Sequence record: ON637250.1
Strand: one strand, 5' to 3'
DNA: 39,100 bases
DNA from: Escherichia phage 6925
Made by a program: the position numbers and the translations under genes. Below the pieces are notes generated by a model. The model made no database searches. It was not told where the DNA came from and saw only the letters and a program-made list of their open reading frames with translations. Shown here in pieces: positions 6,130 through 36,146 of the stretch; positions within the stretch are counted from its first letter, which is position 1; every line of letters starts with the position of its first letter.

Positions 6130-6152
6130 CCTAAACTATCACTATAGGATTA
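6130..6152 (+). promoter_or_regulatory. Phage RNAP promoter (phi1.1-like)
   Basis: CCTAAACTATCACTATA|GGATTA; +1 at 6147. Confidence 0.7.
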
Positions 6153-6195
6153 GACTCAAGGTCATGACTCAAAGTCGTGGCCTTCATGATTAACC
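6148..6195 (+). promoter_or_regulatory. RNase III-like processing site (R1.1-like)
   Basis: TAGACTCAAGGTCATGACTCAAAGTCGTGGCCTTCATGATTAA has the CTCAAGG ... GTGGCC-TTTATGAT pattern of T7 R sites; the same pattern recurs at 13213 and 36093. Confidence 0.55.
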
Positions 6196-6225
6196 CTAAA
6201 TAAACACTACTGGAGATTTAACCGT

Positions 6226-13047: not shown

Positions 13048-13212
13048 TTGCTAAGAAAACTTAAAGCTCGCTACCATCGGTTCATGTACAAATGGTGGAG
13101 TGATGAAGCAACCTGCCTGTCCAACATTCTTGGAGACCAGCGGTTCAACTCTGAGGCATGGAAGAAAGCTAACCGGAAGTTCATGTATCACTTCTTGCGT
13201 ACAGACTTCTAG
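13048..13212 (+). CDS. Hypothetical small basic protein (about 54 aa), putative TTG start
   Basis: AAGGAGGA sits 5 nt before the TTG at 13048; the track ORF 13015..13212 begins inside gene 4. Confidence 0.4.
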
Positions 13213-13258
13213 GTCTAGACTCAAGGTCATTCACATAGAGTGGCCTTTATGATTAGAC
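13213..13258 (+). promoter_or_regulatory. RNase III-like processing site before the DNA polymerase gene
   Basis: TAGACTCAAGGTCATTCACATAGAGTGGCCTTTATGATTAGA, same family as 6148 and 36093. Confidence 0.55.
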
Positions 13259-13275
13259 TAAACGGAGGATTAACC

Positions 13276-17301: not shown

Positions 17302-17324
17302 ACTAAACTATCACTATAGGGACT
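17302..17324 (+). promoter_or_regulatory. Phage RNAP promoter (phi6.5-like)
   Basis: ACTAAACTATCACTATA|GGGACT; +1 at 17319. Confidence 0.75.
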
Positions 17325-18576: not shown

Positions 18577-20145
18577 ATGGCTGAACGTGAAGGGTTCGCT
18601 GCTGAAGGAGCCAAAGCGGTCTATGACCGACTTAAGAACGGTAGACAGCCATATGAGACACGCGCTCAGAACTGTGCTGCTGTCACTATCCCGTCACTGT
18701 TTCCTAAGGAGTCCGACAACTCGTCTACTGAGTACACAACTCCGTGGCAAGCTGTGGGTGCTCGCTGCTTGAACAACTTGGCTGCAAAGCTGATGTTGGC
18801 ATTATTCCCTCAGTCACCGTGGATGCGACTAACAGTCTCAGAATATGAGGCCAAGACCTTGAGTCAGGACTCAGAGGCAGCTGCTCGTGTTGACGAAGGG
18901 CTGGCTATGGTCGAGCGTGTGTTGATGGCCTACATGGAGACCAACAGTTTCCGTGTGCCATTGTTCGAAGCTCTGAAGCAGCTTATCGTCTCCGGTAACT
19001 GTCTGCTTTACATTCCAGAGCCTGAACAGGGTACTTACAGTCCTATGCGAATGTACCGCTTAGTGTCCTACGTTGTTCAACGTGATGCTTTCGGTAATAT
19101 CTTGCAGATTGTAACTCTCGACAAGGTAGCGTTTAGTGCTCTACCGGAAGACGTTAAGTCACAGCTCAACGCAGACGACTATGAGCCTGACACAGAGCTG
19201 GAAGTATATACGCACATCTACCGTCAAGACGACGAGTATCTACGTTATGAGGAAGTGGAAGGCATTGAGGTAGCAGGGACCGATGGTTCATACCCACTGA
19301 CTGCATGTCCATACATCCCGGTACGAATGGTTCGACTGGATGGTGAAGACTATGGTCGTTCTTACTGCGAGGAGTATCTGGGTGACCTGAACTCGCTGGA
19401 GACGATTACAGAAGCTATCACCAAAATGGCTAAGGTAGCCTCCAAGGTGGTGGGCCTCGTTAACCCGAACGGTATCACGCAACCTCGTCGTCTGAACAAG
19501 GCGGCTACAGGTGAGTTCGTTGCCGGTCGCGTTGAGGACATCAACTTCCTGCAACTGACTAAGGGTCAGGACTTTACGATTGCCAAGTCGGTGGCTGATG
19601 CTATCGAGCAACGTTTAGGCTGGGCCTTCCTTCTTAATAGTGCTGTTCAGCGCAACGCCGAGCGAGTCACTGCTGAAGAGATTCGTTATGTTGCTGGCGA
19701 ACTGGAGGCGACCTTAGGTGGCGTGTACTCAGTACAATCCCAAGAGCTTCAGTTACCTATCGTCCGTGTGCTGATGAACCAACTTCAGTCTGCTGGCATG
19801 ATTCCTGACCTTCCGAAAGAAGCGGTAGAGCCTACTGTCTCAACTGGTCTGGAAGCTCTGGGCCGTGGTCAGGACTTGGAGAAGCTGACTCAGGCGGTTA
19901 ACATGATGACTGGTCTTCAGCAGCTATCTCAGGACCCGGACATCAATTTGCCGACCCTTAAGCTGCGACTCCTGAACGCTCTGGGTATCGACACCGCTGG
20001 CCTACTCCTGACGCAAGACGAGAAGATTCAGCGCATGGCTGAGCAGTCGTCACAACAGGCAGTTGTCCAAGGTGCTAGTGCTGCTGGTGCTAACATGGGT
20101 GCTGCTGTAGGTCAGGGAGCTGGTGAGGACATGGCTCAGGCTTAA
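18577..20145 (+). CDS. 8: Portal (head-tail connector) protein
   Basis: 522 aa, collinear with T7 gp8 (PYETRAQNCA, TPWQAVGAR.LNNLA.KLMLALFP, YRL.SYVVQRDAFGN, RMVRLDGE.YGRSY.EEYLGDL). Confidence 0.96.
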   Translation: MAEREGFAAEGAKAVYDRLKNGRQPYETRAQNCAAVTIPSLFPKESDNSSTEYTTPWQAVGARCLNNLAAKLMLALFPQSPWMRLTVSEYEAKTLSQDSEAAARVDEGLAMVERVLMAYMETNSFRVPLFEALKQLIVSGNCLLYIPEPEQGTYSPMRMYRLVSYVVQRDAFGNILQIVTLDKVAFSALPEDVKSQLNADDYEPDTELEVYTHIYRQDDEYLRYEEVEGIEVAGTDGSYPLTACPYIPVRMVRLDGEDYGRSYCEEYLGDLNSLETITEAITKMAKVASKVVGLVNPNGITQPRRLNKAATGEFVAGRVEDINFLQLTKGQDFTIAKSVADAIEQRLGWAFLLNSAVQRNAERVTAEEIRYVAGELEATLGGVYSVQSQELQLPIVRVLMNQLQSAGMIPDLPKEAVEPTVSTGLEALGRGQDLEKLTQAVNMMTGLQQLSQDPDINLPTLKLRLLNALGIDTAGLLLTQDEKIQRMAEQSSQQAVVQGASAAGANMGAAVGQGAGEDMAQA

Positions 20146-20162
20146 CTATCACTATAGGAACA
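20140..20162 (+). promoter_or_regulatory. Phage RNAP promoter (phi9-like), overlapping the portal stop
   Basis: GCTTAACTATCACTATA|GGAACA; +1 at 20157. Confidence 0.75.
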
Positions 20163-20165
20163 ACT

Positions 20166-20257
20166 AGAGCCACTCAAAGTGGGACTTACTGTAGCGCAAA
20201 CAATGACAGTTGGCATTGATCCTAAGTCATCCTACAGGTCCTACTTTGAGTGGCTCT
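20166..20257 (+). promoter_or_regulatory. Long-range 20-bp inverted repeat (RNA stem) in the gene 9 leader
   Basis: AGAGCCACTCAAAGTGGGAC (20166-20185) pairs with GTCCTACTTTGAGTGGCTCT (20238-20257): 19 Watson-Crick pairs plus one G-U, enclosing about 52 nt. Confidence 0.5.
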
Positions 20258-20288
20258 ACCTATTAACGACTTAAAGGAGAATGACTTA

Positions 20289-21173
20289 ATGTCCCAATCA
20301 GTTTATGCCGAGTTCGGCGTTAGCTCTAATGCAATCACTGGTTCCGTTGAGGACCTGAACGAACACCAGAAGTCTATGCTTGAACAGGACGTAGCGGTAC
20401 GTGATGGCGACGACGCTATTACCTTCAAGCAACTGGAAGCCGAAAACGAAGAGGCTGCCGAAGAAGACGAGAACGTCGAAGAGACTGAAGGTGAAGAAGA
20501 CCACGAGTCCGATGACGAAGAGTCTGAGACCGATGGTGAACAACCTGAGTTCGTCGAACTTGGTGATGCACCTAAAGAGCTGACCGAAAGTGTCACAGCT
20601 CTGGATGAAAACGAAGCTGCATTTGACGACATGGTGTCTTCTGCTGTAGAAGCTGGCAAGGTCACTGCTGATGAAATTACCGCTATCAAGGCTGAATACG
20701 CCAAGGACGGTAAGCTGTCTGACGCATCCTACGCTAAGTTGCAGGAAGCAGGTTACACCAAGCGCTTCGTAGATTCGTTTGTCCGTGGTCAGGAAGCTCT
20801 GGCTGAACAGTATGCCGCTGGTGTGGTTCGCTACGCTGGTGGTGCTGAACAGTTTAATCGCATCCTGTCACACCTTGAGTCCAACGACCCGTCAACTCGT
20901 GAAGCACTGGAATCTGCTATCGTTCGTAAGGACATTGCTACTACCAAAGCTCTGCTGAATCTGGCTGGCAAGACTCTGGGTAAAGCTGTGGGTGTTAAAC
21001 CTCAGCGTACCATCACCACTCAGGCTAAACCTGTGGTCGCACATAAGGCTCCTCAGACCGAAGCATTCAGCTCCAAGGCTGACATGATTAAGGCTATGAG
21101 TGACCCGCGATACCTGCGTGACGCTAAATACACGATGGAAGTTCGCGCTAAGGTAGCTGCCTCAAGCCTGTAG
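20289..21173 (+). CDS. 9: Capsid assembly (scaffolding) protein
   Basis: ATG at 20289 after AAGGAG (the track ORF starts at GTG 20250 inside the stem). VYAEFGV, DGDDAI, acidic central region and C-terminal KAMSDPRY match T7 gp9 as recalled. Confidence 0.9.
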   Translation: MSQSVYAEFGVSSNAITGSVEDLNEHQKSMLEQDVAVRDGDDAITFKQLEAENEEAAEEDENVEETEGEEDHESDDEESETDGEQPEFVELGDAPKELTESVTALDENEAAFDDMVSSAVEAGKVTADEITAIKAEYAKDGKLSDASYAKLQEAGYTKRFVDSFVRGQEALAEQYAAGVVRYAGGAEQFNRILSHLESNDPSTREALESAIVRKDIATTKALLNLAGKTLGKAVGVKPQRTITTQAKPVVAHKAPQTEAFSSKADMIKAMSDPRYLRDAKYTMEVRAKVAASSL

Positions 21174-21174
21174 G

Positions 21175-21197
21175 ACTAAACTATCACTATAGGGAGA
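21175..21197 (+). promoter_or_regulatory. Phage RNAP promoter (phi10-like), strongest consensus match
   Basis: ACTAAACTATCACTATA|GGGAGA; +1 at 21192. Confidence 0.8.
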
Positions 21198-21299
21198 CCA
21201 AGAGAAAGACTCAAGGTTTCCCTATTACTTCAGTCCATACGGATTGGGCATCCAGTAAGTAATAAACTTTATCTTTCAATTGAATAGGAGAATTATCAT

Positions 21300-22349: not shown

Positions 22350-22612
22350 CGACCTTTAAGGCCCTCTCTACCGAGGGTCCTACCTTAGAGACGTATAGTT
22401 CTACGGTGGGAACCAGCTTGAAGGTTGACTTCCCGGAGCTTTCAGATGTGACCGACTGGTCGCTGCTTGATGTTACTACGCCTGATGGTGTTAGCTACTC
22501 CCGTAGAACCAACAGTCTCTACTTCAAGGCCACCTCTGGCGTGGAAGGTCTAGTGATTGTTGAGTATGACGGTTCGCCTGTGCGTTCCTTCAACGTATCT
22601 TTCACAAACTAA
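22322..22612 (+). CDS. 10B: Putative 10B-specific C-terminal extension reached by programmed -1 frameshift at the GGTTTTC slippery site (22322-22328)
   Basis: Heptamer G_GTT_TTC sits 7 codons before the 10A stop. The -1 frame is open for about 95 codons from the slip site to a TAA at 22610-22612, immediately before Tphi. Confidence 0.55.
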   Translation, partial: GFHSGVSGLTTFKALSTEGPTLETYSSTVGTSLKVDFPELSDVTDWSLLDVTTPDGVSYSRRTNSLYFKATSGVEGLVIVEYDGSPVRSFNVSFTN

Positions 22613-22615
22613 TTG

Positions 22616-22655
22616 AAACCCCTTGGGTGCCTTCGGGTGCTTGAGGGGTTTTTTG
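22616..22655 (+). terminator. Tphi-like intrinsic terminator for phage RNAP
   Basis: AACCCCTTGGGTGCCTTCGGGTGCTTGAGGGGTTTTTTG: a GC-rich hairpin plus T6 run, closely resembling T7 Tphi, directly after the capsid gene. Confidence 0.85.
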
Positions 22656-36081: not shown

Positions 36082-36092
36082 ATCTATTAAGT

Positions 36093-36146
36093 GTTAGACT
36101 CAAGGTCATTACTGTATGTAGTGGCCTTTATGGTTAACACTAACTA
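36093..36146 (+). promoter_or_regulatory. RNase III-like processing site (R18.5-like)
   Basis: GTTAGACTCAAGGTCATTACTGTATGTAGTGGCCTTTATGGTTAAC, same family as 6148 and 13213. Confidence 0.55.

Follow-up and report, generated by a model that had tools for sequence, protein, structure and literature searches.

A modular, horizontally exchanged hairpin in the gene 9 leader of a K1F-like phage

The 5′ stem-loop of the E. coli ompA message blocks 5′-end-dependent decay, and the hairpins in the rnc and pnp leaders are cut by RNase III, which changes the stability of the downstream message. Together with ompA, the leader of T7 gene 10 is a known analogue of a 5′ stem-loop. In the late leaders of the T7 group, such as the T7 phi10 leader (GGGAGACCACAACGGUUUCCC) and the phi9 leaders of T7, T3 and K11, a hairpin in the 5′ UTR stands just after the phage promoter, with a conserved single-stranded initiation region downstream of it; these hairpins keep their stem and vary in the interior. 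Phage T7 has ten RNase III sites, and in its genome an RNase cleavage site commonly comes shortly after a promoter (PMC6938266). Here we analyzed a long inverted repeat in the phi9 leader of a phage of the genus Kayfunavirus (K1F-like), a member of the T7 group. The hairpin resembles the ompA, rnc and pnp structures as a leader hairpin and has no sequence relationship to them. It shares its position just after the promoter, and the order of a closed hairpin followed by a single-stranded initiation region, with the late leaders of the T7 group. However, the hairpins of those leaders start at +1 and comprise about 8 bp, whereas that of our phage starts at +9, comprises 21 + 6 bp, and leaves the initially transcribed GGAAC out of the helix.

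The phi9 leader repeat and its fold

The window, meaning the whole 39.1-kb stretch of phage DNA analyzed here, contains 24 open reading frames (ORFs) that are 150 aa or longer. Only three of them are not on the plus strand, and each of these overlaps a longer plus-strand ORF. Its gene 8–gene 9 region is 99.2% identical to that of Escherichia phage HC12 and about 97% identical to that of K1F over the aligning 93% of the query. Gene 8, encoding the portal or head-to-tail connector (plus strand, 18577..20145; assigned from its ORF and annotated homologs), has its stop codon only 19 nt upstream of the hairpin, so that read-through RNA from upstream promoters carries the hairpin too. The phi9-type phage RNA polymerase promoter (−17 to +6; plus strand, 20140..20162) was assigned by its match to the K1F promoter consensus, as quoted in the annotation of phage ASO2B. 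Its core CACTATAGG lies at 20150-20158, with the transcription start (+1) at G20157, and it is one of nine K1F-type promoters with this core in the window. The conserved initially transcribed sequence GGAACAAC follows at 20157..20164 of the plus strand. On the other side, the conserved box CCTATTAACGACTTA and the Shine–Dalgarno (SD) sequence AAGGAG (20274-20279) together occupy 20259..20279 and form the right boundary of the variable segment. Gene 9, which encodes the scaffold or capsid assembly protein of 294 aa (plus strand, 20289..21173; ORF and homologs), starts at the ATG at 20289. The whole hairpin belongs to the phi9 transcript: it sits in the gene 9 untranslated leader and ends 15 nt before the SD. 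The placement between a phi9-like promoter and the gene 9 ribosome-binding site (RBS), made in an earlier sequence-only reading of this DNA, is therefore confirmed by the positions of the promoter core and the SD.

No sigma-70 promoter was found at the locus. A terminator, either intrinsic or of class I for T7 RNA polymerase, was rejected, as none is present in 19800-20600 and the stem is followed by CCUAUUAACG, not by a U run. Farther downstream, a GC-rich hairpin with a T run at about 22617-22655 looks like the major late terminator, and an ORF of 68 aa is present at 22406-22612, after the capsid gene.

An inverted-repeat search revealed two 21-nt arms on the plus strand, at 20165-20185 (TAGAGCCACTCAAAGTGGGAC) and 20238-20258 (GTCCTACTTTGAGTGGCTCTA), which are 95% complementary and separated by a 52-nt spacer. 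The near-perfect complementary 20-mers about 52 nt apart described earlier at 20166-20257 were thus borne out, the repeat being one base wider at either end. The arms form 20 Watson–Crick pairs and one G.U pair; this sole imperfect position, G20181/T20242, can wobble-pair in the sense RNA but is mismatched when the antisense strand is folded. The repeat ranks strongest of all inverted repeats across the entire window. Its longest exact stretch is 16 nt, whereas 100 shuffles reached 14 nt at most and 10.3 nt on average, and by our own arithmetic about 1e-4 pairs of 21-mers with at most one mismatch are expected within 120 nt per window. A weak 21-nt inverted repeat at 22386-22406 and 22501-22521 (81%) has TAGAG...CTCTA ends like those of the phi9 hairpin, probably by chance.

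The folding-energy calculation that had been suggested as a check gave −47.7 kcal/mol for the RNA of 20160-20263, against −22.2 ± 2.9 kcal/mol for shuffled sequences (z = −8.8), none of which folded as well. In this fold the 21-bp helix is followed by a 3-nt UUA bulge, a 6-bp helix and then a weaker apical part. The helix begins at +9, leaving eight unpaired 5′ nucleotides, and GGAACAAC is unpaired. The 5′ arm contains ACTCAAAGT at 20172-20180, the bulge occupies 20186..20188, and the upper part (20189..20237) consists of the 6-bp helix 20189-20194/20232-20237 and a variable apical region of 5 bp (AUGAC/GUCAU) plus loop. In the 3′ arm, T20242 takes part in the G.U pair and T20245 is the partner of A20178. 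The arm also contains the in-frame GTG at 20250 whose overlap with the stem had been pointed out in the earlier reading. The overlap exists, but it is irrelevant because this GTG is not a start codon; annotated homologs use the ATG. The phi9 leader hairpin is non-random and real, and it is conserved at the level of structure.

A search of the whole window against Rfam at the gathering threshold gave no match. At E ≤ 10, the locus itself matched only long hairpins of a generic kind; microRNA precursors, for instance, scored 29.5 bits where the threshold is 74. A pairing of the 5′ tail with the loop (CAAC/GUUG) was also considered and rejected, since reading of the alignment found it only in the window's own loop variant.

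Interchangeable leader versions among relatives

In K1F and most relatives the flanks of the segment are conserved, the left one running from the promoter to the end of GGAAC(A)AC and the right one comprising CCTATTAAC...AAGGAG, and the sequence between them is entirely different from that in the window. Among 68 loci sampled from GenBank, IMG/VR and metagenomes, we distinguished 34 leaders, which fall into 10 unrelated types and thus represent at least 10 versions, with a variable insert of 22 to 94 nt. We refer to the window's version of the phi9 leader hairpin as version H. An empty site, that is, a phi9 leader without the segment, was not found among the sampled phages.

In all 10 types, the first 1–9 nucleotides pair with the last nucleotides before the conserved box. 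The pairing is from +1 to +6 in the nine other versions and in the phi9 leaders of T7, T3 and K11, and GGAACAAC forms part of the closing helix in the other leader versions. Pairing of the 5′ 16 nt of each type with its own 3′ 16 nt yielded a summed energy of −116.8 kcal/mol, against −75 ± 8 kcal/mol for permuted ends. A cis-versus-trans duplex test of the leader ends gave p = 5e-5, and p = 1.5e-4 when type H was left out. Furthermore, the K1F-type version (type A) has a compensatory change of its own, ACAAC/GUUGU versus ACAGC/GCUGU. The fold energy of version H (−47.7 kcal/mol) compares with −12 to −23 kcal/mol for the other types, the helices of which are short and irregular, none being as long as that of H. 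What the versions have in common is not a sequence but a closed hairpin in the leader, beyond which the translation initiation region stays free.

The phi9 leaders of T7, T3 and K11 start with a GGGAGACC...GG(U/UC)UUCC(C) hairpin, which in K11 is reduced to a tetraloop hairpin. In the Kayfunavirus loci, all phi10 leaders are homologous and belong to one type, the GGGAGACC/GGUUUCCC stem of which is conserved. In the window, the phi10 leader at 21192-21222 has a 5′ hairpin GGGAGACC...GGTTTCCC, the loop of which varies in sequence and in length, from 8 to 27 nt.

The flanks nearest to those of the window (98% identical in gene 8) carry types A or J, and two loci of type H, L005 and L024, have a gene 8 flank only about 90% identical to that of the window. 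Leader type is thus uncoupled from flank similarity, which indicates that the segment has been exchanged horizontally. Of this polymorphic phi9 leader module, which is exchanged horizontally between phages, the window carries the version with the greatest size and stability. Because textbook accounts of T7 already include both RNase III sites and hairpins in leaders, a hairpin upstream of gene 9 is expected in kind. What is new is the detail: within a single genus the phi9 leader is swappable, at least 10 unrelated sequences keeping the closing helix, and version H has a near-perfect duplex of 21–30 bp in place of the usual short 5′-terminal stem. As a long shot, diversifying selection could act on the phi9 leader as a hypervariable locus for structured RNAs. 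Besides stabilizing mRNA, its hairpins would then be sensed by host immunity or act as decoys for it, or would release small RNAs through RNase III that act on the host, versions being swapped for escape. The modular polymorphism and the horizontal exchange behind this idea both concern sequence, not interaction with the host.

RNase III and the version H hairpin

Seven T7 sites and three sites of the window served to build a covariance model for canonical RNase III sites of the T7 type. The T7 sites were extracted with cleavage coordinates that we take to be those given by Dunn and Studier (1983); the consensus among the sites was the one check on these coordinates. The RefSeq T7 record has no RNase III site annotation. 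Seven hairpins on the plus strand of the window matched the model, with E values from 1e-14 to 6.5e-6. Four of them are in the early region (691-749, 1014-1066, 1744-1794 and 2101-2153), and the other three (6145-6198, 13210-13261 and 36089-36142) are at the positions of R1.1, R4.7 and R18.5. They span 51–59 nt and have uninterrupted stems of 9–11 bp, which bears out the earlier remark that the gene 9 leader stem far exceeds this genome's other processing hairpins in length. The model matched neither the phi9 hairpin (20165-20258), even at E ≤ 10, nor any of the other phi9 leader types. Thus, the phi9 hairpin is not a member of the canonical T7-type family. The canonical layout of a lower stem, ACUCAAGGUC...GGCCUUUAUGA and an upper stem is missing, as are the asymmetric internal loop and the GGCCUUUAUGA 3′ motif of the canonical T7 sites; the phi9 hairpin has 21 bp that are fully Watson–Crick or G.U, with the 3-nt bulge above.

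It shares with canonical R0.3, R0.5, R1, R1.1, R1.3, R4.7 and R18.5 a proximal-box motif of the ACUCAAGG type and a helix of about two turns. The motif in its 5′ arm, ACUCAAAG (ACUCAAGG in eight relatives), corresponds to ACUCAA(A/G)G, the proximal-box motif of the canonical sites. The 9-mer ACTCAARGT occurs 11 times in the window, against 0.84 expected. On the plus strand (for example at 2828, 6154, 6167, 13219, 20172, 21209 and 36098), it marks RNase III-type hairpins and the loops of late leaders. The optimal proximal box, as defined on R1.1, is G-C; A-U/U-A; A-U; A-U/U-A (PMC1540722), and on reading the sequence by these rules A20176-A-A-G20179 (AAAG/AAGG) fits it. The distal-box positions are G-C/G-C or G-C/A-U, not the preferred UA/UG, and 8 of the 12 H leaders (the G variant) have a C-G pair adjoining the predicted cut, which is a catalytic antideterminant (PMC1540722). 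An ideal substrate helix of E. coli RNase III has about 22 bp, or two A-form turns, and a fully paired helix should be cut on both strands rather than on one (PMC3867540). The length of the phi9 helix, 21 bp and then 6 bp past the bulge, agrees with the roughly 20–22 bp of RNase III substrates in general, and if the fully paired helix is cleaved, cuts are predicted on both strands near its center. It is quite possible, on a nearly even balance that tips slightly against, that host RNase III cuts the version H hairpin.

A rival reading takes the hairpin to be a dedicated processing site of the T7 family (an "R9") that exists mainly for cutting, as R1.1, R6.5 and R13 do. That reading draws on the helix length and the proximal-box motif (PMC3867540, PMC1540722), on the seven canonical sites in the window, which indicate that the phage relies on RNase III processing, and on the promoter-plus-cleavage-site layout common in T7 (PMC6938266). 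Against it, the canonical model is unmatched, the internal loop is missing, the distal box is non-canonical, and the other versions of the phi9 leader match the model no better. Moreover, most relatives are without the version H hairpin, and the helices of the other nine versions are short and irregular, so that RNase III cleavage cannot be the conserved function. We also count against it that T7 presumably has no RNase III site at the position of the phi9 hairpin (Dunn and Studier 1983). A dedicated site is therefore an unlikely explanation.

Among the T7 sites, the closest in layout are R3.8, R6.5 and R13, which are likewise hairpins within a few tens of nucleotides of a promoter start (PMC6938266) and, like the phi9 hairpin, are non-canonical in sequence. 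However, these T7 hairpins are short, whereas the phi9 hairpin is long and its cleavage is only predicted. The analogs of R6.5 and R13 in the window also differ from it in enclosing a promoter, whereas the phi9 hairpin is wholly downstream of +1. These analogs are the inverted repeats 17249-17272/17333-17356 and 25940-25951/25978-25989, which enclose the promoters with +1 at 17319 and 25974, respectively, and their hairpins could therefore form only in read-through RNA. R6.5 and R13 of T7 have the same promoter-enclosing layout. In the literature we found no paper combining Kayfunavirus with RNase III, and the SH3 paper does not discuss the phi9 leader.

Conservation within version H, competing readings and a proposed role

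Version H is carried by about 13 of 250 matching phage records, always at the phi9 locus, and by two IMG/VR contigs at the same locus. Two of the records, PV615262.1 ("Acinetobacter" phage 01KA, 39,611 bp) and PV615263.1 (Escherichia phage 1RS, 39,612 bp), have identical match statistics here, and the Acinetobacter host label for the Kayfunavirus 01KA looks doubtful. An alignment of 12 leaders of version H, 9 of them distinct in sequence, revealed that none of the 31 helix pairs is broken in any of the distinct sequences. The arms are invariant apart from the compensatory pair A20178/T20245, which is A-U in four leaders and G-C in eight, with no intermediate; the G.U position 20181/20242 is G-C in all H leaders but those of the window and 01KA. 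In the stem 3 of 56 columns vary, whereas the apical part has 10 variable columns out of 34 (Fisher p = 0.0036). In L024 (IMGVR_UViG_3300045988_000155, 1354-1503), a TAA insertion in the other arm is exactly complementary to the UUA bulge, yielding a hairpin with a 30-bp perfect uninterrupted repeat that folds at −64.5 kcal/mol. This insertion has the signature of a templated (quasipalindrome) mutation. Judged from these sequences, the conservation pattern within version H fits selection on the helix. The covariation amounts to one pair, possibly one event, and both the compensatory pair and the TAA insertion could alternatively reflect quasipalindrome correction at the DNA level.

Taken further, the latter possibility would make the repeat a neutral DNA palindrome, made and kept perfect by template switching during replication, spread among phages by recombination between the conserved flanks (promoter and RBS) and merely tolerated in the leader. 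The arms are indeed almost perfect, beyond what an RNA function needs, the insertion in L024 is exactly templated by the opposite arm, and version type is uncoupled from flank similarity. Nevertheless, a neutral origin is quite improbable, given that the closing helix is kept in 10 of 10 unrelated versions and in the leaders of three other genera, that no empty site occurs in the sample, and that the stem is significantly more conserved than the loop.

Translational control of gene 9, through pairing of the SD–AUG spacer or through a 23-codon leader ORF (20203-20274), fares worse still and is very improbable indeed. The loop sequence UAAGUCAU (20223-20230) is perfectly complementary to AUGACUUA (20281-20288), located between the SD and the AUG, but T>C changes at 20282 and/or 20287 break this pairing in most H-type phages. 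The 23-codon ORF stops at TAA 20272-20274, the last base of which is the first base of the SD, and it is annotated as a hypothetical protein in two records; furthermore, the four changes specific to the window (20208, 20211, 20214 and 20220) all fall at codon position 3. On the other hand, the ORF is without an SD and has a TAG stop in L024, and 5 of its 11 variable sites are at position 3. The period-3 pattern is suggestive (chance about 1 in 27), yet the ORF is probably spurious. The centroid fold of the entire leader leaves both SD and AUG unpaired, and the loop–spacer complementarity is not conserved; direct blocking of the RBS, as one form of the translational control considered in the earlier reading, is thus not supported. 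A MITE-like mobile element with 21-bp terminal inverted repeats inserted into the leader is barely conceivable and largely refuted by occurrence as a single copy at a single locus: the 94-bp unit is bounded exactly by the inverted repeat and replaces other sequence at the same site, but there is one copy per genome, always at the same locus (window, phage records and IMG/VR), none in 5,426 E. coli genomes or 185,579 species genomes (GTDB), and the flanks AAC/TAGAG...CTCTA/CCT (slashes marking the boundaries) are without a target-site duplication.

Comparison of the versions enables us to propose a putative model, in which the repeat is probably a leader hairpin of the gene 9 mRNA for protection or processing of the 5′ end, present here as version H of a modular stem-loop and also cut by RNase III. 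In this model, all K1F-like phages would carry the modular stem-loop between the phi9 promoter and the gene 9 initiation region, and T7, T3 and K11 would carry a simpler form of it. The closed hairpin would join the two ends of the segment and keep the SD region beyond it single-stranded. On the analogy of E. coli ompA and the leader of T7 gene 10, the module most likely protects or defines the 5′ end of the gene 9 message and insulates the gene 9 RBS from upstream sequence; from the same analogy we infer an effect of the hairpin on gene 9 mRNA stability. Among the three roles offered in the sequence-only reading (an RNase III site, translational control, or a stabilizing 5′ structure), the last is the best supported by comparison. 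Its fit to version H is incomplete, as the helix starts only at +9 and the eight unpaired 5′ nucleotides weaken a role as a 5′ cap.

Version H would accordingly be a poorer 5′-terminal cap and a good double-stranded RNA target, and from its long duplex starting at +9 we infer cleavage by RNase III. The enzyme would cut near the middle of the 21-bp helix, at roughly 20174-20176 and 20249-20251. Cleavage would separate the gene 9 mRNA from the gene 8 read-through RNA and leave it with a processed 5′ end some 25 nt ahead of the SD. Given that T7 grows without RNase III (PMC6938266), the effect of any cleavage may be small.

In summary, these results leave the present view of how phages express their genes as it was. 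Should mRNA stability or RNase III sensitivity differ between the versions, they would be natural tuning parts for the ratio of scaffold to capsid protein, and as a set they could serve engineers of K1F, of T7-type phages and of T7-style expression leaders. In that case, the phi9 leader would also be a clean natural example of a structure that is conserved while its sequence is completely turned over.
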